IMG/VR virus record: IMGVR_UViG_3300022200_000063
Span: 1-53,628 of that record
DNA: 53,628 nucleotides
DNA from: a virus
Lineage: Duplodnaviria > Caudoviricetes
Strand: one strand, 5' to 3'
Positions 9,108 through 40,369 of the stretch are shown here, piece by piece. The position numbers and the translations under genes were made by a program. Under the pieces are notes generated by a model. The model did no database searches and had not been told where the DNA came from. It saw nothing but the letters and a program-made list of their open reading frames with translations. The number at the start of each line of letters is the position of its first letter. Positions within the stretch are counted from its first letter, which is position 1.

Positions 9108-9701
9108 ATGATTAATTTAAATGACAGCAGTTATGATGCTGGTACATCAGCAGTAATTTTTAATGGAGGTAAAGCAGGTATTGTTAATAATGTGACTATT
9201 TCTATAGAAAAGAAGAAAGCTGATGACAAAGAACAAGCTCCTGATTATAAATTAGTATTTACAGATGCTAATGGAGGATCTTGTAATACTTCTTTTTGGT
9301 ATGTAACAGCTGATACTCAATATGCTAATATGAAAGAGCAAACCTTAAAGCAAGGTAAAATTTTGAAACATATTATTCATGCTATTTATGGATCAGAGTT
9401 CCAAATTCCTGTGGTAAAAACTCCTAAAGAATTATTAGATACTTGTATGAAGCTTATCCGAGATGGATTGGCTTCTGGTCTTAAATTTAGAGTATTTGCT
9501 AATTATGGGACTGCTCAATATACTAAAAAGTATATTCAGCCTCGTTCTTGGGTTCCTTTTATGGAGCCTATGACTGTATTGGAAGAAGAAAGTCGCTTAA
9601 AACAAGGCGATCTTGATGCTATGGTGCGTCTTGAAGAAGATTCTCCTGTTTCAGTATCAGAAAAAAGTTCTTCAAGTACTGATGACGATGATTGGGATTA
9701 A
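9108..9701 (+). CDS. Putative single-stranded DNA-binding protein
   Basis: Between the Sak4-like ATPase and primase; acidic/aromatic tail STDDDDWD; followed by a terminator. Confidence 0.6.
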   Translation: MINLNDSSYDAGTSAVIFNGGKAGIVNNVTISIEKKKADDKEQAPDYKLVFTDANGGSCNTSFWYVTADTQYANMKEQTLKQGKILKHIIHAIYGSEFQIPVVKTPKELLDTCMKLIRDGLASGLKFRVFANYGTAQYTKKYIQPRSWVPFMEPMTVLEEESRLKQGDLDAMVRLEEDSPVSVSEKSSSSTDDDDWD

Positions 9702-18558: not shown

Positions 18559-21500
18559 CTAGTATGCATTATAGGTATCTTCCACTTCTTTAACTTCATC
18601 TACAGTAACTTCTTTATCTTTGAAAGCATTTTTCAAAACATTAAGTCCTGTGATATGTCCTAAACTAAACCAGGAAGATTCTCCTTCTTCGTCTTTTTTC
18701 ATAGTATTATAAATAGGAGAGTCTAATACCTGTTTAATGAAGTTATTCTTTTGATCAGGGAATTGTAGTTCATAAAGATTTTTATAAGCAGGTATTTTCT
18801 TAGTCCACCATTTTGCTGCATGAGATTGGTCTTCGTACATACCTCTCTCATAAACTTCTCCAAAATTAAAAGCTTCTGTAATATCCAAAAGGTCTTTAAT
18901 AGTCTTTACTCCTACTACTGGTTCGTCGATCATTTCCAGTGTTTCTTGCATAGACCAAGATGATTTCTGCTCTAACAGTAATCTATTCATTTGATATGCT
19001 AAAAGTTGCATAGTAAAATCTTCTTTATCGTCATCTGCGGCAATATTTACTAATCCTGATAATATCGAAATAAGTGTCAAGAATAAGAAATCTAATCCTG
19101 CCTTTTTGGCAGCTCTCTTTTCTACATCATTTAAATTTGCCCAAGCCTGCATAAAAGCAAGAGGATTTTTTTGATTCCATATCCCGTCTACTAAATAATT
19201 TTGCCAAATCAATTTACCAAAAGTAGCATTATAAATACCTATTTCTGTTTGACCTGTAGTATACACTACTCGTTCTTTTTTAAATCTAGTATCTATCAAA
19301 TTGATAAACCATCCTCTGTGCATTAGAGGAAAATCCCCCGCTACTGTTCTGCTAAGAGCTCCTTTATCAGTTTCACTTATAGTACCGTCTACTAAATTAG
19401 TAACGTGCTCTACTTGTGAAAAGATTTTATTTTGAATACCTTCTGTAACATATTGACTAAATTCTGGTTTAACTTGAAGTTTTTTGTTAACTACTTCAAA
19501 TGCATTATAGAAACTTTTATCTCTTAACTTACTCCATTCAGAATCTATAACTTTTTTATCTACTCCTTCTTTCTCTTTTAGTTTTGTAAATTCTAATTTA
19601 TTAACAAAATTTCCATTATAAAGTCTATTATTATCTAAAATAGATAAAGTAACTCTTCCTTTAATAGCATAATCAACTGTTTTATAATTTAAGAACAGCA
19701 TATCTTTAGAAATAGCTTCTGAAATAAATTTTGACTTATTTGTATTTTTTAAAGTTTTCGATAATTCTACAACATTTCCTAATTGTAGAAGTAAGTGCAT
19801 TTTATTGTTCTTTTGATGGGATAAAATTTCTGTACTAACTTCTGCAAGATTTTTTATATACTCTATTCTTGCCCATTGCTTACTCTCATTAGTAGAGTAA
19901 ATCCCCACTTGATCTTCTATTATAGAATCTATAGAACCTTTTAAATAACCAGAAACAGATGTTATCAAGTTCATGGCCAAGTTATTAGTTCTAATATAGT
20001 TAGTAAGTTTGTCTACTATTTTACTAGCAGAAAATATTTTATTTCCAATTTTGATTTCAATATCTTTTTTAGCTACTCCATATACATATTGATCTATAAG
20101 TACATCAAGAATTTTATAATCAATGGATTGACTTCCAGAAACTGTTGTGGGTTTTATTTTTCCCTTCCTATATTTAGTCTCTGCAATACCTTTTTGAACT
20201 GTCAGAAGCTCTGGCCCTAGAACATTCATTTGTTTAAAATTCTCAGCCATTTCTGCAAAAATAGTAACACTTCTAGTTAAATCTAAAGAAAGATTATTTG
20301 GATCTGATAGTCTTCTTGTAAAAAAGATAGGAATAACTCTATTGTTAAGTTGCCTCAAATCCCCAAATTGAGTATCATCCTCGTCTCTACTTACTACTTC
20401 TTTAAATCCTTCTGTTGTAACATCTTTAATTTTTTCTAAGAATGATTTATTTTGAGTAGTCATTCTTTCCAAGAATTGTTTTCTAATTCCTGGAATTTTG
20501 TAATAAGCACTCTCTGTCCTATATTCTGCAGGTAATTTATCTGTAGCCTCCTTAATCTTACTTAATAATAAGTCATAATAATTTTTTACTGCAGGAACTT
20601 TCATCAATTCTTTAAATCTAGGATTTTCTGCTTTTGGCATTACTATTGTATTACCATTACTATCCTTTACTTTAATAGTATTTTCATCAAAAAACTTTTC
20701 AAAAGTTTCTTTGTATACTTTAAGTTCTGATGGAGACAAACTGGCTTTGTTTATTTCAGAAAAATCTTCTGCTCCAAGAGTTTTAGCTAAACTTTCTTGA
20801 ACTTTTCTAAGTTTCTCAAAATATCCAGAATAATCCTTTTCTCTAATTAAGTATTGAGAAGGTACCCCATTTTCACCTAACTCAACTAAATCTTCTACTT
20901 TGTACCCAGCCGCCTCAAGTTCTGCTTGTGCCTGCAGTAATTCATTAGAAACTCCTACGGCATATCTTCTTACTTTTTTAATAGAATCTGATATAAGTTT
21001 ATGGACTGCTCGGATTACACTACTTTTAGCAAATTTGTAATTTCCTACGTAAAATCTCCACCAAGAAGCATCTTCATCGACTATTACATCTTCTGCCTCA
21101 GGATCAAAATCAGGGTCTATAATATTACCAGCAGCATCAGTATTAGCTCTTTTTAAAGCATTGATTCTGATTTGTTTAATGTGTTTACGATTTTCTGTAT
21201 TAATATTATTAATTCTTTTTTGAATTTCTTCTATCTCGAATTTTAGATTAAAATTTTCTATACTTTCTATACCTTCTAATGTTTGATTCTTCAACTCATT
21301 ACCAAAATCATTAAAAAGTACGCTATACATGATAGTAAAATTTTCTATCATATTAGAAATATCTGCAGGTAGTAATTTATTGTTATTTTTATATTTTTCA
21401 AAAATATTTTCTAATTGCTTGAGTTCTGCAGAAGCGGTTTGGAGTACATTTAAAACAGCTGCATCAAACTGACTTTTATTGATTTTATCTTTTAAAGTTT

Positions 21501-22665
21501 TCGTTTGCAATGCTAAGAATTCTGTAGCCTTTTTACTTTTAGACTGTTTTAATAGATCCGCTAATCTATTTTCCATCTGCTCAACAGCTTTATTTAAAAA
21601 AGTTATTTTTTGTTTTTTATCAGCCTCTTCTCCTACACCTCCAGGATAACTATAATCTTCTGTTAGTTGGAAATAATTAGTAGAATCTTCTACTATAGCA
21701 TCTTCTATAGTCTCTCCTTTTAAAATAGATTCTGCTATAGGAAGCATTTCTTTTTTAATACTATCAACAGCTTTTTGATCTTTCTTAATACTACTAATCT
21801 TTCTCCAAAATCTATTAAAAATAGCTTTTAGATAAGCTAAGATTCCTTTATTATTATTATTTTCTTGGAAATTAGTTACAATAACTTTAGCCAATATTTT
21901 ACCCAAAGCTTCTTTTCTAAACTGACTTTCTTTAGTATAAACATTTTTATAATCTTCCTTAACTGTTGTGTATTCTTCAGTATTTACTACAGTATCTAAA
22001 GCTTTTTTTACAGAAGGATCTTTTGACATAAAGGCAATAGCAAAATGGGCTACCTCCTCTGCCATAGTATCCAACTTTTCTTTAGTAGGATCTATACCTA
22101 TTATTTTGTCGAGCATCATCGCTACTCCAGCGGCTCCCTCAAAGACATCACCAATACTAGAAAATCTTTTAGAAAGTTCTCTAATATCCTCAATAGCAAT
22201 TCCATTATTTATTGCCCAGGATTCCAATAAATTATTTAAAGTTTGATTAGGACCTTTTTTTTCCAAAGATTCTAATTGAAATTGCGGAGCTTCTACAGTA
22301 ATATAATAATCCCCTAATTGTTTTCCAGGAGCGGGAATAGCTTGTTTTAAAGCTAAGGCTTTATATCCCATTGATTTATTATAATCTCCTACTAATTTTA
22401 AAACTTCTCCGTAACGCTGTGGATTAATAAATCCTTTAGCATTAGCATTTACTTTTTTCAGTATGCTTTTCTTAGCCTGTTGTGGATTCTCTTTTATTAC
22501 GTTTCCTTTATTTAAATAATCCTTTATTTGTTTGGCTGTTGGAAAAAGAGTAGCTTGTCCTGAGTTAACTAATTCGTTAACTATTCCTGCAAGAAGGTCT
22601 GATGGAATATTAGTTTCCTTTAATAATTTTTGAAAATCTGGATGTGATATGTTAAGACAAGACAT
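18559..22665 (-). CDS. Large virion cargo/ejection protein with a degenerate zincin-like motif
   Basis: 1368 aa, helical, immediately downstream of the virion RNAP; EEVAH..EALG motif; hydrophobic segment near the C-terminus; only Cys at residue 3. Confidence 0.7.
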   Translation of the reverse strand: MSCLNISHPDFQKLLKETNIPSDLLAGIVNELVNSGQATLFPTAKQIKDYLNKGNVIKENPQQAKKSILKKVNANAKGFINPQRYGEVLKLVGDYNKSMGYKALALKQAIPAPGKQLGDYYITVEAPQFQLESLEKKGPNQTLNNLLESWAINNGIAIEDIRELSKRFSSIGDVFEGAAGVAMMLDKIIGIDPTKEKLDTMAEEVAHFAIAFMSKDPSVKKALDTVVNTEEYTTVKEDYKNVYTKESQFRKEALGKILAKVIVTNFQENNNNKGILAYLKAIFNRFWRKISSIKKDQKAVDSIKKEMLPIAESILKGETIEDAIVEDSTNYFQLTEDYSYPGGVGEEADKKQKITFLNKAVEQMENRLADLLKQSKSKKATEFLALQTKTLKDKINKSQFDAAVLNVLQTASAELKQLENIFEKYKNNNKLLPADISNMIENFTIMYSVLFNDFGNELKNQTLEGIESIENFNLKFEIEEIQKRINNINTENRKHIKQIRINALKRANTDAAGNIIDPDFDPEAEDVIVDEDASWWRFYVGNYKFAKSSVIRAVHKLISDSIKKVRRYAVGVSNELLQAQAELEAAGYKVEDLVELGENGVPSQYLIREKDYSGYFEKLRKVQESLAKTLGAEDFSEINKASLSPSELKVYKETFEKFFDENTIKVKDSNGNTIVMPKAENPRFKELMKVPAVKNYYDLLLSKIKEATDKLPAEYRTESAYYKIPGIRKQFLERMTTQNKSFLEKIKDVTTEGFKEVVSRDEDDTQFGDLRQLNNRVIPIFFTRRLSDPNNLSLDLTRSVTIFAEMAENFKQMNVLGPELLTVQKGIAETKYRKGKIKPTTVSGSQSIDYKILDVLIDQYVYGVAKKDIEIKIGNKIFSASKIVDKLTNYIRTNNLAMNLITSVSGYLKGSIDSIIEDQVGIYSTNESKQWARIEYIKNLAEVSTEILSHQKNNKMHLLLQLGNVVELSKTLKNTNKSKFISEAISKDMLFLNYKTVDYAIKGRVTLSILDNNRLYNGNFVNKLEFTKLKEKEGVDKKVIDSEWSKLRDKSFYNAFEVVNKKLQVKPEFSQYVTEGIQNKIFSQVEHVTNLVDGTISETDKGALSRTVAGDFPLMHRGWFINLIDTRFKKERVVYTTGQTEIGIYNATFGKLIWQNYLVDGIWNQKNPLAFMQAWANLNDVEKRAAKKAGLDFLFLTLISILSGLVNIAADDDKEDFTMQLLAYQMNRLLLEQKSSWSMQETLEMIDEPVVGVKTIKDLLDITEAFNFGEVYERGMYEDQSHAAKWWTKKIPAYKNLYELQFPDQKNNFIKQVLDSPIYNTMKKDEEGESSWFSLGHITGLNVLKNAFKDKEVTVDEVKEVEDTYNAY

Positions 22666-22666
22666 A

Positions 22667-25600
22667 TTAACAATTATTTAAATGCTTTAAAGTTTCGATT
22701 CTTGCTCCTAAAGGCATACTTTCAAAGACTTCCTTACTAACTTTAATAGTTTCTCCTTTAGCTTGATTCAAAATTACATATTTCTCATAAGAAGGATCTT
22801 TAATAATCTCTGCTATAGGTAAGATACCTTCTCTTAATTCTGGTGTTATAACAGGGGCTTCTCCAGGATCTTCTTCTGATAGAGCTTTTATTATTTTAAT
22901 ATTTGGAATATCTATATCAGGAAGATAAGCAAAAGGATCCGATGTTCCTGGTACATCTATATCAGGTAGATGAGCAAAAGGGTCCGATATTTCTGGTATA
23001 TCTATATCAGGTAAATTATTAAGACTATTTAAACTTCCTTCTATAGCTGTAAACTCTTCATTATTCATTCCTAAAACAGGAGTTGAGGTAGAATTCTTTA
23101 ATTTAAGAGTTACAGATTCTGTGATATCATTAAACATATTATACTCTACAGCAAAAAGAGAAGTTCCTAAAAGATTAATCTTAGTATAAAGCACGTGTCT
23201 TTCGCCTTCCTCTACTTTCTGATAAAGTTCTACCTTACCAGACTTGTTGCTAGTTTTGATAAATTTAGGAAAATTAAAGATACCATCTGCATCTTGTACT
23301 TGAATATTTCTAAAAGTAGCTTTATTTAATTTTAAAATTCCCTCCGAAGTCTGATGTTTTCTCCATCCTCTTACATCCTCTTTTTCTCCTGCAAACCTTA
23401 CGTTATCAGGAATACCTGTAGTATTATGAATAGCTAAAAAGGCCTGGTTAAATTTATCATCTTCAAAACGAACGTAATGGAGACTTTTAGAAACATGGAA
23501 AAGTTTTTTAGGATTTTGACGAGCTACGTCCATTAACTTTTGTAATTCATTAATATATCCTTCAAGTGTTTCTGCTTTTCTTACTCCATATTGATTAGCT
23601 TTTCCTAGAGGAGTTATCTTTCCTACATTAGGACCATCTAAAACTATTTGTACATCCATATTTCCAAAGTCTTTAACTTGTGGACTGAACAGAATACTTT
23701 CTGTAGTAGAAATGTTAGGAATCATTAATGATTTTTCTCCTGTATTCTGTACAAATTGCTTTTCAAATCTTTCTAATAAAGTAGTATCCCCCCCTTCAAT
23801 AGCAGCTAGTCCTGCTTCAATATGCTGGTTAAAACTTCTGTTTCCTCTACTCGGATCAGTTAATTCTAAATGTGGGTAATTTCTAGCAAATTTGTCAGTA
23901 AACATTATTTCTGGAACCAAATGGAAGAAAGTGTATGGTCCAAAATTAAATCCTGAAGAAAAGAAAGTATATTTTACTAAATCCATAGCTAATTTATGAA
24001 CAGCTGGGTCTGGACTAATTAGCATTTCATACCAAAGTCTTTTATAGTTGATGATATCTTGAGCGTTCTTACCTGTAGTATAGAAGCTGATTCTTTTTAT
24101 TGGAATCTTGTTATTAGCAGATTCAATATTAAGTTGTTCTAAAAATGGAATAAAAGGAGAATCAGGATTATTAGCTATAAAATCTCTCAAATTATCAGGC
24201 GTATCTTTAAGTACACTTTCTGCTTGATTATATTTAAAAGTAGGGAATCCAGAAGCTAGGAATGAAATCATCCCAGCATCAATACTGTTAGCCTCTTTTT
24301 CTGAAATACTGTAAATAGAATCTTTCATGTTAGAGAACCTAACCTTCAATCTTCCTAACTGAGATAATTTTATGGTATTATCCGATTTCAGTCTTCCAAT
24401 TGCAGGGAAAATTTCATTCATAATATCTATAAATTCTCTCCATCCATACTGAGTAAATGCAGCATTAATATGAACTCCCTCTTCTTTTTCTATCAAAAAG
24501 TCTTTTACTCCTAAAATAGGATACTCAGGATTATTTAAAATCTTAGATTGTTTATACATCTTAGAAAAAGCTGCTCCATGTGTAGGACCAGGACCACTTG
24601 TATCTGTTTTTGTAGCTCTTGTTACTTCTCCTAATTTTCCAGAAATATTTAAAATCTCTTCAAAAAGAGAAAGTACTTTATATTGATCCAAGAAATATTT
24701 GGCTTCAGTTCCTTTTACCAAAGAGTCTTGTAATTCTTCCAAACTGATGTCTACAATATTCTCATCAATAGTATTAAACTCTTCTTCAGAAATATTAAAC
24801 GATTTTTGAATCTTAGCTTTCAAGTCTTTCTTAATTCTCGCAAAGCTGGCATTACTTTCTTTCAGACTACCTTTAGCTTTGAAATAAGCATTAGTAACTT
24901 CCAGTATAATTGGCTGATTGATAAAGGTGAATGTATATTCTGATTCTACACCTAATCGAAGCATAGTAGCTATGATATCAGCTGTGTAAGTATTCATATT
25001 AAGATAAGAAGCAATAGGGTCTTTAGCATTATCCACTACTGCTGCAATAAGGTTTGCTAATGATTTAGAAATTCTTATCTTACCTGATTTAGTGTCGGAA
25101 TAAATTTTATTTAAATCTTGATACTCAACACCATTGATATAAATAGGAGTTCTTAATTTTAATTGAGAAAGTTGAGCTTTAGCATGGTGAACGTTATGGT
25201 TAGCAAAAATACCAATCAAATCGTTACCTGTCATATTTCTAACAAACAACTCTCTCTGAGTGGAAGGATAGTTAATATTAAAATCTATATCTTCTAGTCT
25301 ATCTATTAATTTTTTAAGAGCGTCTTGATAGTCATTAATGGTTATTTTCCCTGTACTATAATCACTGAATAACGCTAATGCTTCTTTTTTAAGCTCAGCT
25401 TTAGGTCCTTTTTTATCGCTTATTTTAAGTAGTCTTAATTTACTACCCAAAGCTTTTTCTTCAGCAAATCCTCCTGGATCTAATATAGACACTGCAGTAT
25501 TCCTATTTTTAAGAATACTCTTTACAATTTCCATTAAGCGGTTATCCCTTGATTTCTTTCCTTGAATGTCTGAGGCTTTTACAGAAACTCCTTCTAAACT

Positions 25601-28600
25601 TTCTACAATTGCATCTTTAATAGTATTAATTAATTGATTAGCTCGTGCTATAGATTCGTTATAAGGAATAAATGTTTCTAGTTCTGTTACTTTTTCATAA
25701 AGCAATTCTTGAAGAGCTTCTTTTTGTTTATTAGATTTTGCTTTTTCTATTTGTGCAGAAAGATTTTCTATCTCTAATTGTAATAATTTCTGCTCAGACT
25801 TCTCTTCGAAAGCTTGTTTCCTATAATCAAAAAGATTAATACGATTCTGTAGAATCTCTTCTACTGATAAAGTAACATTTTTAGTAGAAACTCCTTCAGG
25901 CAAATACGTTGTTAAGAATTTTTCTAGTCCTCTTAAGTCTCTGAAAATATGATCTACAATCTCTTTCTTACTACTGTTAGCACTTAAAGGTTTAATGTAT
26001 ACAGCTTGTTTTTTCCCATCTTTCTCTACTACATAGAAATTAGGAATCATCATAAATAATTTATCAATATCAAAGTCAAGACCTGCTATGGTAACAGCTT
26101 CTGGTGGAAGAATTAAGGTTCCTCCTTGTGCAGGATCTGTAAATCCTTTTACTCTGATATTAAACATAGAATATTTATCCTCTGTTGGAATACGATAACC
26201 TATTATTTCTAAAAGTTGTTCAGGAAGAACAGATAAATCCACTTCTCCATTAGGTAATTGAGGAAAGAATTTTTTACTCCACCAAGGAAGTAAAGCTTGA
26301 TATGTAATAGCTCCAGTTTTTGAATCTACTTCTATTTTTAAATCATCACTAATTCCAAAACCAGTGGTGTTAATCATATTACCACCATTAATCTTTTGTT
26401 TAATAATTCTATTATTAACAAAAGAATACATTAAGTTCTGAACTTTAATGTTTAATGATGGATGCCATAGAGGTAGGGCAGTAGTTGTCTTATTTGGATT
26501 AAGGTAATGAGGTATTAATTCTAAAGCCTCTAAATATCCAGGATCCATATTACGATCTTCTATCTCTCTTCTTAGAAACTCTACTAATTTTTCTAGACTA
26601 AAATTGCCATCCTTATCTTTAAATATTTTACGAACTCCTTCTGCAGATTCTTTAATATTGGCTACAATTAAATCTTGATATTCCTGGGCAAGTTCTCTAC
26701 CAGTTATTTTTTTACCGTTTCCATCTTCATAAATAGCATCAAAATCTAAATCAGCTATAATCAAATTTCTAATCTGCGAACCATAATTACCTATCTCATC
26801 TACATAGTGAGGAGGAGTCTCGTTTTGCAGTTTCCAGTCTTCTTGCTTTAGCGTAATTACTTCTGCTTCTTCGTTTAAAATGTAATTTCCAGAAGCGTCT
26901 TTTGTTAAATTATTTTTAATAGGTTCTCCTGATTCGTTTAATCCTGAAAACAGTCCTCCTACTTTAATAGCAGACTCAAAAACTATAGCATTAACTTCAT
27001 GTTCAGAACCATCTTTATGAGTTATTCCGTTTTCTAGAATTTCATATGCTTTCGCAAGTTTTGGGTATTTTAAATTTCCGTTTACATCTTTTCTCTCGGC
27101 CATTGCTCTAGTGAGTAGTACCTCTGAGTTTTTAACTTGTACAGGTACTATTGTTCCATCTATATTTATTTTAGTAAACATGAATGGTTTGATAGGAGGG
27201 AACAATGCTATATCATCAATACTTTCTACACCTTCTCTTATACGTACAGCCGCATCTCGGTGAGCTTGGGTAGTACGGTTCATACTATCTAAAATATCTA
27301 AATATCTTTCGATACTTATGTATGTAGCACCATCTGAATTATTATTACCTCTTTCTTTTGTACCTAAGTCTTTCCAAATACTTAATAAAGCTGCTTTCTT
27401 TTGAGGATTTAAATTTTTATCAGACATAATAAGTTCTGATATAGCTTTTACAGTTTCTTCTTCAGTAGGTACTATCTCATCTTCTAATATTAGAATATTA
27501 TAATCATTAACTACTTTAGTATCAGTATAACTACCAGGGCTAATTACTTGTTTAAATCTTTTCTGAAAATCTTCTGTATTCTTATAAAATGCAGGATCTC
27601 CAGCGAGAATAGTGTTGAGTTCTATATTAGTATAGAAAGTATTTAGTAAATAATTATCATAAAATTGTTTTTTATCTTTAATAGCATTACTGATCAACTC
27701 TTCTTCAAAACGAAGAGCTCCTTTATCATAATACAGAATTCCTTTTTCTTCTGCTTTTTGATATTCATTTGCTAAATACGTATTAAAAATATAGCTTTCT
27801 ATCTCTGAGCGTAATAGCCCTTCTTCTGTTTGTAATTCTTCTAGCGAATATTTAGAAGAATTTAAAAAAGATAGATTTACGAATTTAGTTCCATTTTCAA
27901 CATAGTTAGGAATAAAATTGAGTTTATGATTGTCAGGAATATTTTTTAATTTATTTATCCTAGCAATCTCTCCTAAAGCTAACTCTACTAAGTTGTCTAT
28001 AATTTGTTCATTAGTATATCTTCTGGCTTTTACAAAAGGTATATTGGTACTATTAGAAGGAATAGGAAGTTTGTAAAAACTGAACCCCTCCTCTTTTAGT
28101 CTTTCTTCTTTCGCATTATTTTGAAAAAACGCCAAACAAACAGCTTCTAATTCTGCAGGAGAAAGTTCGTCATATGGAATAGAATAGAACTTACCTTGTC
28201 TAGAAAGTGATTCAAACATCGCCACAGTAAGTCCTTCTTCCGAAGTAGAGAATGTTTTTAATTCTCCAGTCTCCATATCAAAAATATCGTTTATCATTGG
28301 AGATTTTGATAGAATAGGATCTTGTCTTATTTCTTCCCAAAATGCTTTAGCTTCTCTAGGATTAGTAAGTTTACTGAATAATTTATTTAAATAATTACTG
28401 TATTGAACTGTGTACTTTGTTTTATTATTAGAATCTCTAAAGGCCATATTCACATGAGTCTCTAATCCTAATTTAAGAGCCGCAGCTAAGCCAGCCACGG
28501 GACTTCCTATAGCAGTTTGATTCTCTCCTGAATCTGATTTTTTAATTTCCAAGAATGGATTCTGCCCTTCAGATAATTTTTGAAGAATGTCTTCAACTCT

Positions 28601-31600
28601 ATTTAAAACTTTGTGTACTCTTTTTACACTAGGAGAAACATCTGTTCTTACAGGTGCCCAAGTGTCTACTAATTGTTTAGTGGTTATTGGTAATTCTATA
28701 CTATAAAGAAATTCTGATATTTTTCCCAGTTCTGTAATAATAGTATCTTTCCCTCTAGCATTATCGAAATTTGTTCTTATTTCCTTGAACTCTGCAAGTT
28801 TTTGTAACGCAAATTCTTTATCAATAGAGGTAAAATCTTTTTGTCCTGATAACGGGCCTGATGTATGATTATTGAAAAATTTAGATTTGTGATTTAAGAA
28901 ATTGGCTATTAGGAAATCCTCAATAATCTTACCAATAGTTTTTCTGTTTTTATTAAATATACGATAGTGTCCTTTTTCATAATAAACTGTCATGTAGTTT
29001 ATATTTGACTTAGACGCTAATGTTACATACAAATCAACTACTAATCCATAATTAGATTGTAGTTTATCTAGAAGTTGAGGAATAAAATCTCTTTCATTTT
29101 TAATAGCTTCTAATTTTTCAAACATGTCCTCAACACTTGTAGAATTAGTAATCCTTTGAGACAAGAATGAGAACACCTCGTTTCCTGCAAAAGTCTCTCT
29201 TGCTCCAAATCTGTTTAGTAGAGGATTTCCATTTTTAGGATTAACTTTATAGAAGTTATTAAAGATTCTTTTCAGAGTTTGACTCATAGTGGTTCTTGGA
29301 TCGAACTCTGCTATATCTCTTTGCCAATTTTCTAAATCTCCTAATTTATTTTCATTATCTTCATCAGTTTCTTGTGGCTCTGTTCTATCCTCTACTAAGC
29401 CTACAGCAGAGGATAAATCCTTAATTATAATGCCATCTTCTGATTTAAGAGTTCTTAAAAAAGCCTGCATCAAAGGCATAGATTCTAAATCTACAGGAAT
29501 TAGATAAGTACCATCTGGACCTTTAACAGTTTCAAATACTTCTGGACTAAAAGAGATTTGTCCTCCTTCTCTAAAAATTACTCCTAATTCTGAAGCTAAT
29601 TGTTTAAACAACTCACTATTAGGTTTTAACTTATTCTTTCCATAAGTCTTTACTATTCTTGTAATAGTTTTTCCTAAGAGAACTCTAGGGCCTACTTTGG
29701 AAATAATATCAGGATCATTTAATCCTGCAAAACTCTGCTCTTCTAAACTTTTTAAAAGATCAGCTTCTTTAATAGAATTTATTTCCGCAAAGAAAGTCTG
29801 TTTAATATATTCAATAGCTTCTTTTTCTAGACGAATATCGGTAAAACTTGAATAAACTTTACTGATACTACTTGCTCTCATACTTTCAAATTCAGATGTA
29901 TCTGTATTTTTAAAAGTAATTGTATCCTTATATTTTCCAAATTGAATATCGGAAAATAGAGATTCTATAGATATAGTAGCTTTATTATTAAATAATGTTT
30001 TAATTAGTCTAAAGATATTCTTGAAGAAATCTGTTACTCTTTGTCCAAAAGTTTTAGGTCCTTCTTGTTTCTTAAAATCTAAAGTTCCATCAGATTGAAC
30101 ATATTCCATAAACTTATCTGCCAAAAGTTCTTCTACTTCTAGATAAGTAGGATTTTCACTCAATTCTGATTTAAATAATTCTTTAGCTTCTTTTAAAATT
30201 AAAATTCTTTCTTCTTTAGATAAAGCTAAATTAAAAACTACGTGAAAAGCCTCATGATAAGCTGTTCCTGCAAAAGCGTTATTTTTTAAATAAAGTCCTG
30301 CTTTTGTAAATAATCCTTGTAAAGAGCCAGGTTGTTTGGCTAAATTTCTTAGATACTCAAATCCTTTAGGACTTAGGTATTCTCTAAGTTCCTCTTCGGA
30401 TTCAAACATTGTAATCTTATCCCTAACAGCTTTTCCAAGTTTATCTTGAATCCATTGAAGTTCTTTTTCTTTATCCCAATGCTCTCCTATAGTAGTAGTC
30501 CTTGCTTTAGGATTATCATCGTTAGCAGAGAAATCTACGTCATCTGCCTCTCCTCCTAAGTCTTCGGTGTTCAACACTTGTCCAGTAGCTTCTGCAACTA
30601 AGTCAGCAGACTTACTAGCAGTTCCTCCTAATTCAGGAAGATCAATATCAGGAAGCTCTGTTAACAGTGCGAAATCTCCAACTTCTTCATCAATAGGTCC
30701 CTGTGTTTTTAAAGGAGCAACTTTTTTATCTTCATTCTGTTTTTTAGTAATAGTTTTAAACTCTGCTACATCAGAAATTTTAAAAAATTCGTTTCTTGCA
30801 GAATTCTTTTCTTCATTACTAATTTCGGCAGGAGTATTTTCTATAATATTACTTTGAGGTTTTCTTGCTTGTGTATATGCTTCAATTTTATAAACTTCTA
30901 TTTGGTTTCCTTCTATAACAGCATATACTTTAGCTTTTTTATTAGTATTAGGTATACTAACCTCTCTACTAATAATAATAGCAAGTTCATCTATAGGACT
31001 AGCAAAAGCTCTAGATTCTCCTTTTTTATTTTTTTGATCTTCTACTTCTTTTTTAGCCATTTCGTTTATGGCTGCTTTTTTGGAAGCCTCTTCTTCTTTT
31101 GCCTTAGAGATTTGCTTCTTAATGCTTTCTAAAATTTCAGGAGTATACTTACTAAAATCTTTTGTATCTAATACAAATCCAGAACTATTAAAGAAGTTTC
31201 CGTTTTCTTGATAAAGATCTGTTGTGAAGAATCCATCATCAGCATATTTTTCATTTTGACCTTTTTTATTAATTTCAAAATAGTTTATTCTAGCAAGCTT
31301 GCCAGGAGTAGACATTTTGCCTTCCTGATTTCTTTCTCCTATATATTTACCATCTTTATAAGTTCCTAAAATAATTGTATTAAGTTCTTCAGGGCGATTG
31401 GCTATCTCTTCTTTAATTGTACCATCTGCTTGAGCAGTTCTTACAATAATAGTATTTCCTTCTTTTTCAAAGGAAACTTTATACATATTTTTTTCTAATT
31501 TCTTTTTAGCTTTTGTAAAAGCATCTCCTTCTAAAGTAAAAAGTAATTTTAATTGATTCTCAATCTGTTTAGCTATTTTAGTTTCTCCTAAAAAAGAGTT

Positions 31601-32143
31601 TCTTAATGGTACAGCACGTACACCAGTCCCTGAAGGAATTAATAAATACGGTTTCCATAATTCCATTTTAGCAATAGGGTTCTGACTACCAGACTCTAAT
31701 GTTTTAATATACTTAATAGTTTTCTCGTCTGCTTTTCCATACTTAAGTCCGTCAGGCCCCTTGATTACAACAACAAAAGGAACTTTAGTTCTCTTCATTC
31801 CAGTTTTCTTTTGCTGTTCTTCTATTGCAGCATTGGCAGCTTTAATTACTTCGTTAGGATTATTTCTAGCATATACATTATCAAGAACCTGGCCGTCCTC
31901 TACTTGTCTTGAGTTATTAAACTTTCTATTAATTTTTCTAAGGATTCTTACAGAAATCCCGTCAGGCTTTGTTTTTTGTCTTTGTTTTCCTATATTACCT
32001 AATTGTTGGTCTACTGGAAATTCTGATATTTCTATATTTTCAGCTACTATTAATTGATCTAGTAATCCACTATATAATAATTCTTTAAAATTAGCCTCAG
32101 TAACCCATTGGCCATTAATATAATAAAGACAATTTGCTGCCAT
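22667..32143 (-). CDS. Giant virion-packaged DNA-dependent RNA polymerase (crAss-like) with a zincin domain
   Basis: Catalytic loop AGLDFDIDK (~26060-26086) preceded by GYRIPTEDKYS; VVDNAKDP; zincin HEAFH (30242-30256) with downstream EELLAD. Confidence 0.9.
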   Translation of the reverse strand: MAANCLYYINGQWVTEANFKELLYSGLLDQLIVAENIEISEFPVDQQLGNIGKQRQKTKPDGISVRILRKINRKFNNSRQVEDGQVLDNVYARNNPNEVIKAANAAIEEQQKKTGMKRTKVPFVVVIKGPDGLKYGKADEKTIKYIKTLESGSQNPIAKMELWKPYLLIPSGTGVRAVPLRNSFLGETKIAKQIENQLKLLFTLEGDAFTKAKKKLEKNMYKVSFEKEGNTIIVRTAQADGTIKEEIANRPEELNTIILGTYKDGKYIGERNQEGKMSTPGKLARINYFEINKKGQNEKYADDGFFTTDLYQENGNFFNSSGFVLDTKDFSKYTPEILESIKKQISKAKEEEASKKAAINEMAKKEVEDQKNKKGESRAFASPIDELAIIISREVSIPNTNKKAKVYAVIEGNQIEVYKIEAYTQARKPQSNIIENTPAEISNEEKNSARNEFFKISDVAEFKTITKKQNEDKKVAPLKTQGPIDEEVGDFALLTELPDIDLPELGGTASKSADLVAEATGQVLNTEDLGGEADDVDFSANDDNPKARTTTIGEHWDKEKELQWIQDKLGKAVRDKITMFESEEELREYLSPKGFEYLRNLAKQPGSLQGLFTKAGLYLKNNAFAGTAYHEAFHVVFNLALSKEERILILKEAKELFKSELSENPTYLEVEELLADKFMEYVQSDGTLDFKKQEGPKTFGQRVTDFFKNIFRLIKTLFNNKATISIESLFSDIQFGKYKDTITFKNTDTSEFESMRASSISKVYSSFTDIRLEKEAIEYIKQTFFAEINSIKEADLLKSLEEQSFAGLNDPDIISKVGPRVLLGKTITRIVKTYGKNKLKPNSELFKQLASELGVIFREGGQISFSPEVFETVKGPDGTYLIPVDLESMPLMQAFLRTLKSEDGIIIKDLSSAVGLVEDRTEPQETDEDNENKLGDLENWQRDIAEFDPRTTMSQTLKRIFNNFYKVNPKNGNPLLNRFGARETFAGNEVFSFLSQRITNSTSVEDMFEKLEAIKNERDFIPQLLDKLQSNYGLVVDLYVTLASKSNINYMTVYYEKGHYRIFNKNRKTIGKIIEDFLIANFLNHKSKFFNNHTSGPLSGQKDFTSIDKEFALQKLAEFKEIRTNFDNARGKDTIITELGKISEFLYSIELPITTKQLVDTWAPVRTDVSPSVKRVHKVLNRVEDILQKLSEGQNPFLEIKKSDSGENQTAIGSPVAGLAAALKLGLETHVNMAFRDSNNKTKYTVQYSNYLNKLFSKLTNPREAKAFWEEIRQDPILSKSPMINDIFDMETGELKTFSTSEEGLTVAMFESLSRQGKFYSIPYDELSPAELEAVCLAFFQNNAKEERLKEEGFSFYKLPIPSNSTNIPFVKARRYTNEQIIDNLVELALGEIARINKLKNIPDNHKLNFIPNYVENGTKFVNLSFLNSSKYSLEELQTEEGLLRSEIESYIFNTYLANEYQKAEEKGILYYDKGALRFEEELISNAIKDKKQFYDNYLLNTFYTNIELNTILAGDPAFYKNTEDFQKRFKQVISPGSYTDTKVVNDYNILILEDEIVPTEEETVKAISELIMSDKNLNPQKKAALLSIWKDLGTKERGNNNSDGATYISIERYLDILDSMNRTTQAHRDAAVRIREGVESIDDIALFPPIKPFMFTKINIDGTIVPVQVKNSEVLLTRAMAERKDVNGNLKYPKLAKAYEILENGITHKDGSEHEVNAIVFESAIKVGGLFSGLNESGEPIKNNLTKDASGNYILNEEAEVITLKQEDWKLQNETPPHYVDEIGNYGSQIRNLIIADLDFDAIYEDGNGKKITGRELAQEYQDLIVANIKESAEGVRKIFKDKDGNFSLEKLVEFLRREIEDRNMDPGYLEALELIPHYLNPNKTTTALPLWHPSLNIKVQNLMYSFVNNRIIKQKINGGNMINTTGFGISDDLKIEVDSKTGAITYQALLPWWSKKFFPQLPNGEVDLSVLPEQLLEIIGYRIPTEDKYSMFNIRVKGFTDPAQGGTLILPPEAVTIAGLDFDIDKLFMMIPNFYVVEKDGKKQAVYIKPLSANSSKKEIVDHIFRDLRGLEKFLTTYLPEGVSTKNVTLSVEEILQNRINLFDYRKQAFEEKSEQKLLQLEIENLSAQIEKAKSNKQKEALQELLYEKVTELETFIPYNESIARANQLINTIKDAIVESLEGVSVKASDIQGKKSRDNRLMEIVKSILKNRNTAVSILDPGGFAEEKALGSKLRLLKISDKKGPKAELKKEALALFSDYSTGKITINDYQDALKKLIDRLEDIDFNINYPSTQRELFVRNMTGNDLIGIFANHNVHHAKAQLSQLKLRTPIYINGVEYQDLNKIYSDTKSGKIRISKSLANLIAAVVDNAKDPIASYLNMNTYTADIIATMLRLGVESEYTFTFINQPIILEVTNAYFKAKGSLKESNASFARIKKDLKAKIQKSFNISEEEFNTIDENIVDISLEELQDSLVKGTEAKYFLDQYKVLSLFEEILNISGKLGEVTRATKTDTSGPGPTHGAAFSKMYKQSKILNNPEYPILGVKDFLIEKEEGVHINAAFTQYGWREFIDIMNEIFPAIGRLKSDNTIKLSQLGRLKVRFSNMKDSIYSISEKEANSIDAGMISFLASGFPTFKYNQAESVLKDTPDNLRDFIANNPDSPFIPFLEQLNIESANNKIPIKRISFYTTGKNAQDIINYKRLWYEMLISPDPAVHKLAMDLVKYTFFSSGFNFGPYTFFHLVPEIMFTDKFARNYPHLELTDPSRGNRSFNQHIEAGLAAIEGGDTTLLERFEKQFVQNTGEKSLMIPNISTTESILFSPQVKDFGNMDVQIVLDGPNVGKITPLGKANQYGVRKAETLEGYINELQKLMDVARQNPKKLFHVSKSLHYVRFEDDKFNQAFLAIHNTTGIPDNVRFAGEKEDVRGWRKHQTSEGILKLNKATFRNIQVQDADGIFNFPKFIKTSNKSGKVELYQKVEEGERHVLYTKINLLGTSLFAVEYNMFNDITESVTLKLKNSTSTPVLGMNNEEFTAIEGSLNSLNNLPDIDIPEISDPFAHLPDIDVPGTSDPFAYLPDIDIPNIKIIKALSEEDPGEAPVITPELREGILPIAEIIKDPSYEKYVILNQAKGETIKVSKEVFESMPLGARIETLKHLNNC
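22905..23014 (-). repeat. 45-bp period coding tandem repeat (LPDID[IV]P x3)
   Basis: atctatatcagg core recurs in units starting at ~22905, 22950 and 22995; protein LPDIDIPEISDPFAH-LPDIDVPGTSDPFAY-LPDIDIP. Confidence 0.9.
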
Positions 32144-32159
32144 ATTAAAAAAGTTTATT

Positions 32160-32174
32160 TAGCAAATATACAAA
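32160..32174 (-). promoter_or_regulatory. Bacteroidota-type -7 promoter upstream of the virion RNAP gene
   Basis: Reverse complement reads TTTGTATATTTGCTA, in a 37-nt intergenic gap. Confidence 0.65.
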
Positions 32175-32180
32175 TAAAAA

Positions 32181-33047
32181 TCAATCACATCTTTTATGCT
32201 CTTGTGATTCAGGATCGAAGAAGAAATTAATTTTTTTATTAATGATTTTTTCTACAATATTCTCGAAATTTTCATTAATAAATTTAGCTCTTTCGATTCT
32301 TTCTTTGCCATATTTTTCAAGAAGTTTCTTTTCTTGAGCAGGTCTTTTAGAAGCTCTCACTGAATTTAAAGCATTGAGTTCCATCAGAATTTTATTGTCG
32401 ATAACTTCAGGAACTATTAATGCAGGAGTAGGGAGTTGAGATTTTAATTCTTGGATTTTACTTTTTAGCTCATTTACTTTTTCAGAATTTACTTTAACCC
32501 CACTTGTTGGTTGTATTGTAGGTTTAGCTTCTGTTAATTCTATTATCTCTTTTTTTAATTCTGGAAAAGCTTTATTTAGATTTTCTATTTGTACTTTAAT
32601 ATCTGAATCTAAAATATCTTTATTTCTAGAATCAAAATAATTTTCAACTAATTCAGATAAATTATAATGCTCTAAGCCGTCTTTATTAGGAATAGTAATT
32701 TTAATAAACTCTTCTCTTAAAATAAGGTCTTGATTGGTATCTCCTTGTTCGTTTTCAAATTGTAAATTTTTATTAAAGTCATCAACTGTTAGAGGTCTTG
32801 ATACTCCTTCTTCAATTAATACAGTTATATTTCCAGAGTCTACGACTCTTTTCCATAAAAGTTTATTTAATTTTTCAGTAACATCTTGAACTGTAGTTTT
32901 CTTTGTTATAGGTTGAACAGATAAGGATTTTAAATAATCTTCTACAACTCCTTCTTTGGCAGCCCAAACTACATAAGCCGTAGGTTCTCCTACAGCTTTT
33001 TCTAAATCTTTCCAGATCTTTAATCTTTTATTAGGACAGCTAATCAT
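32181..33047 (-). CDS. Hypothetical cargo-module protein with Cys at both termini
   Basis: MISCPN...HKRCD; N-terminus resembles that of the 1368-aa protein; ATGA-coupled to the ferritin gene. Confidence 0.7.
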   Translation of the reverse strand: MISCPNKRLKIWKDLEKAVGEPTAYVVWAAKEGVVEDYLKSLSVQPITKKTTVQDVTEKLNKLLWKRVVDSGNITVLIEEGVSRPLTVDDFNKNLQFENEQGDTNQDLILREEFIKITIPNKDGLEHYNLSELVENYFDSRNKDILDSDIKVQIENLNKAFPELKKEIIELTEAKPTIQPTSGVKVNSEKVNELKSKIQELKSQLPTPALIVPEVIDNKILMELNALNSVRASKRPAQEKKLLEKYGKERIERAKFINENFENIVEKIINKKINFFFDPESQEHKRCD

Positions 33048-33529
33048 AGATATCTCTCTACATAATGATCAAGTACTAATTTATCAGAAGTAAGTTTAGC
33101 ATGATCTAAAATATCAATAGCTTTTCCTACTTCTTCTACCTGCTCTGCACAATATTTAGAAGCTAATGCAAAAAGTCCTGTGTGCTTCATTTCTAGAGCT
33201 TTTTGAGCCAGTTCTTCACATTGCTTAGTAATCATAAGCTCATGGTCTAAAGTAGCCTCTAATACATCCATATAACTTTCAAATTCCATTACAGGAGAAT
33301 TCAGACTTTGTAGTTGAGGAGTAATACCGAAGTTCAATAGAAAATCCATAGACCATTCTGCATGGAGCTTCTCTTCTCCTTCATATTTTTTATATAGAGC
33401 AGCTAAATGTTTAAATCCTTGGTTATCAAACCAAAGAGACATTTGATGATATAATCTTGAACTAAATTCTTCTTGTTGAATTCTGTAATTCAAAAGTTCT
33501 ATAATCTTTTCGTCTAGTAGATTTCTCAT
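33044..33529 (-). CDS. ftn: Non-heme ferritin
   Basis: 161 aa; LN..I..E..SS.LY..MS.W, EEKLHA, LDHE, EQVEE match FtnA ferroxidase-centre ligands. Confidence 0.9.
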   Translation of the reverse strand: MRNLLDEKIIELLNYRIQQEEFSSRLYHQMSLWFDNQGFKHLAALYKKYEGEEKLHAEWSMDFLLNFGITPQLQSLNSPVMEFESYMDVLEATLDHELMITKQCEELAQKALEMKHTGLFALASKYCAEQVEEVGKAIDILDHAKLTSDKLVLDHYVERYL

Positions 33530-36500: not shown

Positions 36501-37311
36501 CAGCACCTGCTACAAATGATATTGCAGGAGCCATCTCATCATTAAAAATTTTAACAGGATCAGATCCTACTCTTGTAAAGAAATCTTTTTTGACTGGCTG
36601 TCCAAACTCATCATACTTTATTCCTCCTGTCACAGGATCTATTTCCCAAATATTACTTCCTCCATAAATAAAAGTATATTTATCAATACTTCTATCTACA
36701 TATTCCCAAGCATCAAATGCGGAGTTGTTAAAAAGTTTAGCTGGGTCTAAATTTATAATAGCACTTCCTACTCCATAAATTGCAGGTAATATTCCTAAAA
36801 CATTCCAAGCGGTTTTTCCTATTAATTTACCTGTAGTCTTGCCTAATTCTGTAATCCATCCCTCATTCTCATCTAAATCATCTACAAAGTTTTTTATTGA
36901 TTTATGATAATTCTTTTCTTTATATTTAATAAGATCTTTGAAATCATTTTCAAAATGAATTCCAAAAGTATTAAGGTCTGTTAAGTTGACTAACTTTTGT
37001 CCGTTTTTTCTAATGTAAGCCTCTCTTTCATAAGGATCTGGAATAGCTCTTGCTATATCCACAGGCTGAATAACTTTACGAAGTTTTTCAGTATTAAATA
37101 TAGTAGAACCTGTCAAATGAATGTCCATACCAGCAGTACTAGCATTTCCTACAGCTTTTACTGCCTGTTCTTCTAGAGATTCAGGTTTTTTATATTTTAC
37201 ATTATCGAAGTCTAAAGTATTATCTACTGGATCTGGTATAGTAGAAGGTCCTTTTAATTTGATTTCTTTAGAATCAATTATATCTGATATAGGATTTCTT
37301 TTCTTTGACAT
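33529..37311 (-). CDS. Large virion cargo/ejection protein
   Basis: 1260 aa; Gly/Ala-rich hydrophobic helices, SEGFEEFAQG motif, coiled coils; only Cys is the penultimate residue. Confidence 0.7.
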   Translation of the reverse strand: MSKKRNPISDIIDSKEIKLKGPSTIPDPVDNTLDFDNVKYKKPESLEEQAVKAVGNASTAGMDIHLTGSTIFNTEKLRKVIQPVDIARAIPDPYEREAYIRKNGQKLVNLTDLNTFGIHFENDFKDLIKYKEKNYHKSIKNFVDDLDENEGWITELGKTTGKLIGKTAWNVLGILPAIYGVGSAIINLDPAKLFNNSAFDAWEYVDRSIDKYTFIYGGSNIWEIDPVTGGIKYDEFGQPVKKDFFTRVGSDPVKIFNDEMAPAISFVAGAVVTELLATAAAPFTGGASVAANTAKLEAQAVRAFGKSYRVLKGLDKLDDAAKATQAKAYYAKFFQTNSTIMSALRSSSLENSLIGRSTSDRVYNELISQHEGPLTEQQEKLYRAKADEAGFMAYTINLPLVAGSNFIQFPKLYLKNWNTAINGARKNYKYLDPKSFSGTRFVNGKRVANVDASEFGIQKYFGYTKAATKGFISEGFEEFAQGALEEGLLDYYGHMYGAQNTEEQVYFINSLVGAARKFANSDEGVSSISIGAAMGLLGLKLPVIKQNAKGKYRLKLQSFGGAGSEIRELRSQSREARAFASKMNTLQQKENPVLAKNFQSHFTRTEAQKNADAAAVNNDVFEFKNSEHQQMFDLIYNRAELGIVDSIFQDIENAKKLPLAKFNEVYGSKEFQFTEAQRKKALEKAESSAAKIVEEIDNVKLLMENHPDTVVEKIQRFITNLYKDTNNQVTARITPKEYQDGLVKQLAYLRSTIDNTEIRESEILENIEKTSKGGSVFGTGASIGIDLSSLDSMAVELAGINDKTGRAEFKETINKKIDEILAEFKKSDPIRYSLMSPTLKQSIQDIKDLKIRKAQAAKLYENLFTAKGQKELAKFTATLKAVHSQKMAEAMVDLLKDQVKNTKNTKVNTSVEEADALFGNSDALDPIVHLNIIKGINEYEKIKPGDLGNLSNNDIRELIRFLDKYPSLLSAVVNSLKAKGVDVPGIKSVDDLIQLTEIDESIHYKILNSIEEVLAKIKQLEKISFNRPIFEDSEDEYQPAVEGASPEVDYSRVAEIFEDTDSDEVFITMIYDKKVTKSGYEFDESGKPKDHPLKEKEFDSAIVNSPEFLSNKDLRTNIREATFEIPDTEYNRESTTDVSNMDIRAYYTDEATGKKIFIGKLPTAKGAGNLLALRQAILNEHNMRAVKKGTEINVKEIEDQIRELEKQLTDLEKQTETEEDKMLSDLKNILKEEKSVTLTPEEIDALTMEETGELIKKLCK

Positions 37312-40368: not shown

Positions 40369-40369
40369 C

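Follow-up and report, generated by a model that had tools for sequence, protein, structure and literature searches.

The virion RNA polymerase of N4-like phages (Schitoviridae), such as N4 gp50 and DEV gp71, is a giant enzyme that is packaged in the capsid and, like the cargo of crassviruses, is suppressed in cysteine (Cys); the N4-like enzyme is ejected unfolded ahead of the DNA. It is one chain of about 3400 to 3500 amino acids (aa) without any Cys and, unlike the crassvirus proteins, it has no breaks, no end modules and no terminal Cys. This suppression has been published (0.00075% Cys in gp71 homologues versus 0.865% in proteomes) and was explained by passage through the periplasm (PMC11445570). 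Here we describe the corresponding proteins of a crassvirus genome of 53,628 nucleotides (IMG/VR record IMGVR_UViG_3300022200_000063, positions 1 to 53,628; this whole stretch is called the window), in which the polymerase and the proteins associated with it are encoded in four pieces and a Cys is kept at each end that faces another piece. This rule is conserved across the order Crassvirales and covaries with the fusion and splitting of the proteins. The pattern looks like the same Cys-purging solution applied to a chain that is encoded in pieces, and we propose that the pieces may be joined end to end.

Parts of this arrangement are known from other systems. Polyketide and non-ribosomal peptide synthetases use docking domains, short matched modules at the C-end and N-end that put separately encoded pieces in order and that are dispensable when the pieces are fused. 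These domains act non-covalently, without a conserved Cys pair, and are unrelated to translocation. In two-chain toxins a single interchain disulfide holds the chains together while one of them threads unfolded through a narrow channel, and the reducing cytosol releases it; both chains derive from a single nicked precursor, and they are not bonded end to end. Split inteins are separately encoded halves that Cys chemistry rejoins at a junction. There, a catalytic Cys opens an N-intein of about 100 aa, and the +1 Cys follows a C-intein of about 35 aa that ends in Asn.

For crassviruses the literature is considered here as far as its full texts were searched. The crAss001 proteins gp47, gp49 and gp50 are virion proteins by mass spectrometry, and the cargo must partly unfold to pass constrictions of less than 50 Å (PMC10172136). 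The fold of the crassvirus polymerase is unrelated to that of the N4-like polymerase (PMC13434306). It was already noted that the three crassvirus proteins are fused in some phages, and the phi14:2 preprint suggests that fused forms are cleaved; joining of split forms is not suggested in its text. The word "cysteine" is absent from the searched text of the crAss001 atlas (PMC10172136), where "disulfide" appears seven times, each time for structural proteins. Neither word appears in that of the N4 paper of 2026 (PMC13434306), and "cysteine", "disulfide" and "Cys" are all absent from that of the phi14:2 preprint. Terminal Cys, end modules and joined cargo are therefore undescribed in the searched full texts, a scope outside which lie the journal version of the phi14:2 work and the supplements, including the extended tables of PMC10172136. 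Cys suppression in ejected phage proteins and the gp47/gp50/gp49 fusions were already known, and the terminal Cys pairs, the end modules and the proposed joining of the cargo seem to be new.

Terminal cysteines in the window and across the Crassvirales

The open reading frames (ORFs) of the window, translated with table 11, include Pfam matches to crAss_MUZ (E value 3.5e-149), CrAss_Ring_1, CrAss_Ring_2 and crAss_CARG1, which places the genome in the Crassvirales. Four of its proteins, of 1260, 288, 3158 and 1368 aa, are the subject of this work. Residues 1744 to 2148 of the 3158-aa protein match PDB 6VR4, the phi14:2 virion RNA polymerase (E value 1.4e-32), and the protein carries the catalytic motif DFDxD that was named in 10.1101/2020.03.07.982082. 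Judged by this homology, it is the Crassvirales virion RNA polymerase of the two-barrel, phi14:2 gp66 type. The 1368-aa protein matches crAss001 gp49 at 23% identity over 84% (tblastn E value 3e-32), and the 1260-aa protein is about 23% identical to part of crAss001 gp47 (E value 7e-10). The homologues of the window proteins in crAss001 (gp47, gp50 and gp49) and in phi14:2 (gp65, gp66 and gp67, GenBank gp078, gp077 and gp076) have the same end Cys, and we call the three proteins gp47-like, gp50-like and gp49-like. Searches of PHROGs and Pfam gave no match for the 1260-, 288- and 3158-aa proteins and a structural-protein PHROG only for the 1368-aa protein, which also has no relative among solved structures.

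Together, the four proteins contain 7 Cys in 6074 residues, and six of these seven lie within five residues of an end. The binomial chance that at least six of seven Cys fall in the 40 terminal positions is 5.7e-13. The starts of the proteins are well defined, since no earlier ATG lies between each of them and the in-frame stop upstream; the genes touch or overlap. TGT is the codon of all seven Cys and TGC of none, and the genome has about 30% G+C.

The first-pass annotation, which was made from the sequence alone, had described this count and placement, and both were reproduced; the end sequences that it quoted are exact in the table 11 translation. It had presented the four genes as consecutive. 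The four proteins are indeed there, but a ferritin-like ORF at 33044-33529, between the 1260-aa and 288-aa genes, had been missed. It had described the pattern as one of consecutive virion cargo proteins; because the two upstream cargo genes, of 1013 aa and 1236 aa, lack any Cys, the pattern is limited to the RNA-polymerase-associated proteins and does not extend to all cargo. The idea would have had to be given up if the terminal Cys were not conserved in homologues, and it survived this examination: at 20 to 60% identity, the end Cys are the only invariant end residues. As a general rule, the proposed chain in gene order fails, since the gp47 gene of crAss001 lies on the strand opposite to gp50 and gp49 and its product retains the C-end Cys.

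Conservation was followed in 74 IMG/VR loci together with the window, crAss001, Dulem virus 41, p-crAssphage and phi14:2. The polymerase core was present in 78 of these loci, and dereplication at 70% identity of the core gave 41 clusters, two of which were too fragmented for use. ORFs shorter than 900 aa were left unclassed, and a 3219-aa copy in locus L036 was excluded from the cluster counts. In the dereplicated clusters, gp47-like proteins have a C-end Cys in 22 of 22 cases and an N-end Cys in none of 19. Where a separate gp47-like gene exists, the polymerase has both an N-end Cys (22/22) and a C-end Cys (22/22). The gp49-like proteins have an N-end Cys in 37 of 38 cases and never a C-end Cys (0/38); the single miss, L006, has its N-piece as a separate ORF that bears Cys 4. 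Thus Cys are found at the junction-facing ends only, the outer ends of the series never bear one, and the end Cys come in N/C pairs to a total of two, four or six according to the number of pieces. The other ORFs of the same loci have an N-end Cys in 18 of 243 cases and a C-end Cys in 30 of 243, which is the rate predicted by their Cys content of 1.25%. Inner Cys amount to 83 in 219,096 residues of the cargo proteins (0.038%), compared with the 1.25% of the neighbouring ORFs. Suppression of Cys as in the ejection proteins of the Schitoviridae is therefore present, but complete absence is not, as one Cys is kept per junction-facing end. In the dereplicated loci, no Cys occurs in 10,248 residues of relatives of the 1013-aa protein, and 4 occur in 8560 residues of gp45-like proteins. 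We noticed just one recurrent inner Cys, at about residue 1100 to 1130 of the long polymerase proteins of one clade (P0138, P0141-P0145 and P0149; L026 and L047).

Larger samples of homologues gave a similar result. In a large protein collection, a Cys at position 3 to 5 is found in 32 of 34 gp49-like homologues, for most of which it is the only one, and the two misses look truncated. The C-end Cys is present in the last 10 residues of 113 of 120 polymerase homologues and the N-end Cys in the first 8 residues of 88 of 120. A single Cys within the last three residues is found in 19 of 20 gp47-like relatives. Close relatives of the 288-aa protein were absent from a first search of viral contigs and a phage collection, but a full phmmer scan found some, and the Cys is kept in 13 of 13 matches to its N-end and 23 of 23 matches to its C-end. 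In an alignment of 20 polymerase proteins (A1), the invariant residues include C5, C3158, H630, E631, H634, D2023, F2024, D2025 and D2027, and the Cys is the sole invariant residue of the C-end; C3 and N5 are invariant in the gp49-like alignment (A2).

Individual phages illustrate how far the rule reaches. In crAss001, gp47 (2341 aa) has only Cys 2339, gp50 (2412 aa) has Cys 5, 1334 and 2404, and gp49 (1349 aa) has only Cys 5. The three proteins of the marine phage phi14:2 are 1797, 2180 and 1421 aa long, and their only Cys are at position 1797, at positions 3 and 2179, and at position 3, respectively. The pattern also occurs in Dulem virus 41, p-crAssphage, cr271_1, cr118_1, cr109_1, cr125_1, cr10_1, DAC15 and csAssE-Sib (epsilon crAss-like), and according to the taxonomy lines of the records the families Steigviridae, Intestiviridae and Suoliviridae are covered. 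The rule therefore extends beyond this window over the whole order Crassvirales. A few loci need a comment. In L059 the Cys stands at position 5 when counted from the second Met, and in L062 it stands at position 10. L023 has no polymerase N-end, because its first 165 or so residues are out of frame, and the nearly identical L024 starts at the contig edge with ..RYWYDG. L058 and L066 are broken into many ORFs under table 11 and have no rows in the counts. The annotated cargo genes of cr109_1 (L081) and cr125_1 (L083) contain 9 to 78 in-frame stops each under table 11, and their end Cys are present. Both the in-frame stops and the fragmentation of L058 and L066 are consistent with the stop-codon reassignment known in some crassviruses.

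Fused proteins, split proteins and moving breaks

The gp47-like and gp50-like proteins are fused in L006, L010 and L044 and in P0094, P0095 and P0099. These fused proteins of 4210 to 4957 aa align to both the 1260-aa and the 3158-aa protein, and they have one Cys, at the C-end; the inner Cys number zero in 13,302 residues. For three fused proteins, no counterpart was detected at the junction either of the final 60 aa of gp47-like proteins or of the first 60 aa of polymerases (9 and 9 queries, 27 tests per end). Most alignments of end modules to fused proteins had a z value below 2, and the highest, 4.4 and 3.9, both lay away from the junction. By contrast, polymerase residues 61 to 165 align at the junction in L006 and L010 (z up to 12.4), though not in the third fused protein (row L036, 4461-aa form). 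The end modules of about 60 aa are thus undetectable in fused forms, which recalls the docking domains that fused synthetases can do without; a sequence relation to those domains was not found, the four proteins having no Pfam match. In the fusions of gp50-like and gp49-like proteins, p-crAssphage gp44 and cr271_1 gp48, a Cys remains at the N-end and is missing from the C-end, and the protein upstream of them still ends in Cys.

The window itself shows the opposite event. Relatives of the 1260-aa protein at 31 to 37% identity are unsplit (1316 to 2072 aa) and end like the 288-aa protein, with the C-end module ..NENFD.IVEQI..SGINVFF....HKEC. The window and its three closest relatives (46 to 60% identity) end earlier, with a different module that also ends in Cys. 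Stand-alone relatives of the 288-aa protein of 152, 162 and 488 aa retain both Cys. As the split into 1260 and 288 aa carries a new C-end Cys and a new N-end Cys, the new break brought a new pair with it.

The position of the break also differs between lineages. A zincin motif, HExxH, lies in the polymerase protein of the window, where it is invariant in the clade, and near the C-end of gp47 in crAss001. The database records and the phi14:2 preprint assign the zincin domain to the gp47-like protein of p-crAssphage and phi14:2. Since this motif is found in different proteins according to the lineage, the protein boundary must have moved by several hundred residues. In these comparisons the Cys pairs track the breaks in the polypeptide and not one homologous site. 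On a tree of the polymerase core (FastTree only, midpoint root, 41 rows, 1498 columns, with cr271_1 on a long branch), from which L077 and L039 were excluded because their core matches are short, the fused or split state changes at least five times, and the N-end Cys changes along with it in five of five independent pairs.

Some apparent exceptions concern interrupted polymerases. In L036, the 4461-aa form of L044 is present as an interrupted copy, whose extra 673-aa piece ends in Cys. An insert of about 900 nucleotides breaks the polymerase gene of L043 (14221-15148) and of L064 (7707-8634) at the catalytic Asp loop, and no Cys is found at the break. Because both loci cluster with the uninterrupted L054, L055 and L057, this insert is probably an intron or homing-type element in the most conserved site and not a true break of the protein.

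End modules, junction types and features of the window

The sequence around the Cys varies by clade, in recurring combinations of C-end and N-end. One C-end type, a short acidic helix-like motif that ends in K-x-C or KNC, precedes N-ends that have the form M-x-C-[PIV]-N. The window uses this combination twice, at the junction of the polymerase with the gp49-like protein and at the junction of the 1260-aa with the 288-aa protein. The third junction, from the C-end of the 288-aa protein to the N-end of the 3158-aa protein (MAANCLYYINGQW), is the usual gp47-like/polymerase junction of the window clade. The first-pass annotation had proposed matched motifs of two orthogonal types. As types the two are real; their orthogonality is doubtful in the window because two of its three junctions share one type. 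The pairing of neighbours that it had proposed gains further evidence from the fused and split variants described above, to which it had no access, and appears from all these comparisons to be well supported; its interpretation as a whole is supported in part.

The 1260/288 junction resembles the polymerase/gp49-like junction of L026 and L047. Of 54 residues, 20 are identical between the C-end of the 1260-aa protein and that of the long polymerase protein of L047, and residues 1 to about 48 of the 288-aa protein match the N-ends of the gp49-like proteins that are located after ferritins in L047 and L026. A ferritin ORF lies between a Cys-ended and a Cys-started product in 4 of the 41 clusters (the window, L026 at 10447-10929, L047 at 16937-17428 and L045 at 8859-9359). 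The window ferritin matches PF00210 over residues 10 to 144 with 66.5 bits against a cut-off of 24.5; the ferritins of the window, L026 and L047 are about 49% identical to each other, and the L045 ferritin is distant. The simplest reading is that the gp47-like gene of the window lineage received a copy of the whole junction cassette. An N-end module M-I-[ST]-C-P-[ND]-K-R.. was also seen on P0176 (152 aa), P0177 (162 aa), P0180 (2267 aa), P0201 (434 aa) and P0205 (1167 aa). These proteins have a second Cys in the last three residues and no others, and the shortest are little more than two end modules.

For one of the three window junctions, the cognate complex of residues 3069 to 3158 of the polymerase with residues 1 to 90 of the 1368-aa protein was predicted with custom alignments. 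The complex score was 0.43 (runs 0.48, 0.36 and 0.43), and the best of three controls scored 0.00. The pass mark is reached by 58 of 80 solved complexes and by 2 of 110 mismatched pairs, and among passing scores of at most 0.60 are only 7 of the 80 solved complexes and both passing mismatches; the use of custom alignments makes these counts approximate. At least 60% of contacts are shared between the runs, and the predicted local distance difference test (pLDDT) value of the partner is at least 58. This prediction lends weak support to the idea that cognate C-end and N-end modules may bind each other.

The positions of these features are collected in Table 1. On the minus strand, the block reads in order muzzle (1445 aa), 1236, 1013 and 1260 aa, ferritin (161 aa), and 288, 3158 and 1368 aa. 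The crAss_CARG1 match presumably belongs to the 1236-aa ORF, to which it was assigned from gene order.

Table 1. Location in the window of the polymerase-associated proteins, their end modules and adjoining genes
Feature	Position	Strand	Remarks
gp47-like protein, front piece, 1260 aa	33529..37311	-	homology to crAss001 gp47; only Cys = 1259 (codon 33535-33537)
1260-aa protein, C-end module, last ~50 aa	33532-33681	-	..MEETGELIKKLCK
Ferritin-like ORF, 161 aa	33044..33529	-	Pfam PF00210, E 3e-18; PHROG 16594; Cys 104, 127
Link protein, 288 aa	32181..33047	-	Cys 4 (33036-33038), Cys 287 (32187-32189)
288-aa protein, N-end module, residues 1-48	32904-33047	-	homologous to gp49-like N-ends of L026, L047
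288-aa protein, C-end module, residues ~239-288	32184-32333	-	ancestral C-end of the unsplit gp47-like protein
Virion RNA polymerase protein, gp50-like, 3158 aa	22667..32143	-	PDB 6VR4 match, DFDxD motif
3158-aa protein, Cys 5	32129-32131	-	
3158-aa protein, Cys 3158	22670-22672	-	
3158-aa protein, inner Cys 1336	28136-28138	-	unconserved
3158-aa protein, N-end module, about residues 1-60	31964-32143	-	
3158-aa protein, zincin HExxH motif, residues 630-634	30242-30256	-	
3158-aa protein, catalytic DFDxD motif, residues 2023-2027	26063-26077	-	
3158-aa protein, C-end module, last ~45 aa	22670-22804	-	
gp49-like protein, 1368 aa	18559..22665	-	homology to crAss001 gp49; only Cys = 3 (22657-22659)
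1368-aa protein, N-end module, about residues 1-50	22516-22665	-	starts MSCLNISHPDFQKLL
Upstream cargo genes without Cys, 1013 aa (37327-40368) and 1236 aa (40370-44080)	37327..44080	-	context, outside the chain

Elsewhere in the window, a 207-aa ORF on the plus strand (438-1061) has a LAGLIDADG homing endonuclease domain (E value 2.9e-15) and 7 Cys. A thioredoxin-like gene was not found in the window (34 ORFs scanned, among the best 25 of 26 families). The p-crAssphage record BK010471 annotates a thioredoxin and a truncated thioredoxin (gp37 and gp39) near extra proteins with a C-end Cys.

A proposed linear thread and the alternatives

From this pattern we infer docking, disulfide chemistry and a role in ejection. 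The gp47-like, gp50-like and gp49-like proteins may be pieces of one long polypeptide that is broken at different places in different lineages. After translation, the short C-end module of the upstream piece would dock on the matching N-end module of the downstream piece, and the Cys in the last 0 to 9 residues of the one and the Cys at position 3 to 5 of the next would then form an inter-protein disulfide. The product would be a linear, unbranched thread that runs from N to C, the equivalent of the single-chain N4-like virion polymerase. Such a thread could be packaged in fixed proportions and pulled piece after piece through the portal and tail channel, after which the reducing host cytoplasm would presumably cut the links and free the subunits. 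All other Cys would have been purged, which would prevent loops or branches. In the window, where the gp47-like gene has been split again (1260 and 288 aa, with the ferritin gene between them), there would be four pieces and three Cys pairs. Since each bond would connect residue 3 to 5 of one chain with the last residues of another, the thread would be almost unbranched, which suits a narrow channel. Inter-protein disulfides do exist in crAss001 virions, in the tail and at the portal vertex (PMC10172136). On balance we lean towards the view that the three polymerase-associated proteins become one linear thread by means of docking modules and terminal disulfides.

Several points weigh against this thread. 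The disulfide, a cross-linked peptide and a joined species are all unobserved, and crAss001 virions have been run both reduced and unreduced in work whose searched text is silent on linked cargo (PMC10172136). Both the gut and the host cytoplasm are reducing environments, which would restrict formation of the bond to the particle or to the time after release. The docking support from the prediction is weak and covers one of three junction types, and because two of the three window junctions are of the same motif type, mispairing is conceivable. In p-crAssphage (L077, BK010471), the gp45-like gp47 (857 aa, only Cys 856) and gp48 (264 aa, Cys 259) have no evident N-end partner, and the same is true of the C-end Cys of a 458-aa gp45-like ORF in L007. 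In several crAss001-like phages and in cr10_1, the C-end Cys lies 7 to 10 residues from the end. The order of the genes can differ from that of the chain, as in crAss001, and the polymerases of L043 and L064 are, untidily, broken without any Cys. For the tree, a sign test on the five pairs gives p 0.0625, the lowest value that five pairs allow, and 10 of 13 rows labelled fused were so labelled by length and gene order, without homology to the gp47-like body.

It is also conceivable, although we find it unlikely, that the head-to-tail junctions are the same but that their two Cys share a metal ion (a zinc, iron or copper clasp with further ligands) or form some other thiol-based link. All of the pairing evidence fits such a clasp equally well. 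Moreover, the ferritin gene sits at a Cys junction in the window, L026, L047 and L045, a histidine follows five residues after the Cys in many gp49-like N-ends (SHP motif), and a histidine lies near the Cys in some C-ends. However, each junction has two Cys only, the histidine of gp49-like proteins is not invariant, the junction types MACKYWYDG.. and MAKKCAIIP.. have no histidine, and ferritin genes occur in just the four clusters named above. That the Cys is the sole invariant residue at the polymerase C-end, with no other invariant residue beside it, argues against a multi-ligand metal site. The number of end Cys, two in fused forms and six in the window, led to the rejection of a single four-Cys metal site common to all ends.

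Alternatively, the modules may dock non-covalently, with free thiols at flexible ends that sense the redox change on entry or that time the release or activation of the polymerase; we consider this quite unlikely. The modules vanish together with the Cys in fused forms, the weak predicted contact assumes no bond, and the reducing cytoplasm disfavours stable disulfides during assembly, all of which would suit such docking. It leaves unexplained why each side of every break has exactly one Cys while the outer ends have none, and why the C-end Cys alone is invariant while the sequence of the module drifts unrecognizably between clades.

Very unlikely, in our opinion, is a third possibility, that each terminal Cys anchors its own protein to another part of the virion, such as the portal, the inner surface of the capsid or other cargo, and not to its neighbour. 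The unpaired C-end Cys of gp45-like and small proteins in p-crAssphage and L007 would fit such independent anchors, and so would the use of inter-protein disulfides by crAss001 structural proteins. But the outer ends bear no Cys (0/19 and 0/38), the Cys are counted in N/C pairs, a fusion loses one C-end and one N-end Cys together and a split gains one of each, and the C-end module, the ferritin gene and the N-end module recur jointly as one cassette. The reading in which gene calling, or nucleotide signals at the boundaries of genes, produced the terminal Cys as a by-product and the protein ends have no role was rejected as next to impossible: although the window Cys codons are all TGT and the genes abut, the gp47-like C-end Cys is kept in crAss001, DAC15 and many IMG/VR loci whose gene is on the other strand and not beside the polymerase gene, the Cys is not at a constant distance from the end, the pattern persists at 20 to 25% identity and in genomes with reassigned stops, and neighbouring genes in the dereplicated counts have end Cys at the chance rate only. 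Two other candidates were also dropped. A split intein was rejected since the Cys are at the extreme ends and there is no Pfam intein domain; with Cys in the last 0 to 9 and the first 3 to 5 residues, there is no room for an intein between them. A bacterial lipoprotein was rejected since the Cys is at position 3 to 5 without a preceding hydrophobic segment, and a lipobox needs a signal peptide of about 20 aa.

Returning to the disulfide-joined thread, a wider version of it can be put forward more tentatively, and we would not stake as much on it. An ejection thread of about 700 kDa or more, of the N4-like kind, may have been rebuilt from separate proteins by means of portable, disulfide-locked docking pairs. 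For crAss001, the masses of the three proteins given in PMC10172136 add up to about 694 kDa. The thread would be packaged and ejected as one unbranched chain that the host cytoplasm cuts into working subunits, and the junction, which consists of the C-end module, sometimes a ferritin gene, and the N-end module, would be a movable gene-splitting cassette that causes no loss of function, the window being an example.

Among the phages of the human gut, crassviruses are the most abundant. How three giant proteins pass through their narrow tail is considered an open question in the 2023 structural atlas (PMC10172136) and in the 2026 N4 paper (PMC13434306). The rule of one Cys per side of each break, with none elsewhere, gives a hypothesis on this passage that can be tested on the cultured phages crAss001, DAC15 and phi14:2, it allows the chain order to be predicted from the sequence alone, and it provides a simple annotation mark for ejected proteins in metagenomes. 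Should the bond prove real, the small matched modules could be used as natural tags to join proteins in a set order. The rule also explains why gene fusions and splits are freely tolerated in these proteins, and, again if the bond is real, the crassviruses would be the first case known to us in which separately encoded ejection proteins are joined end to end.

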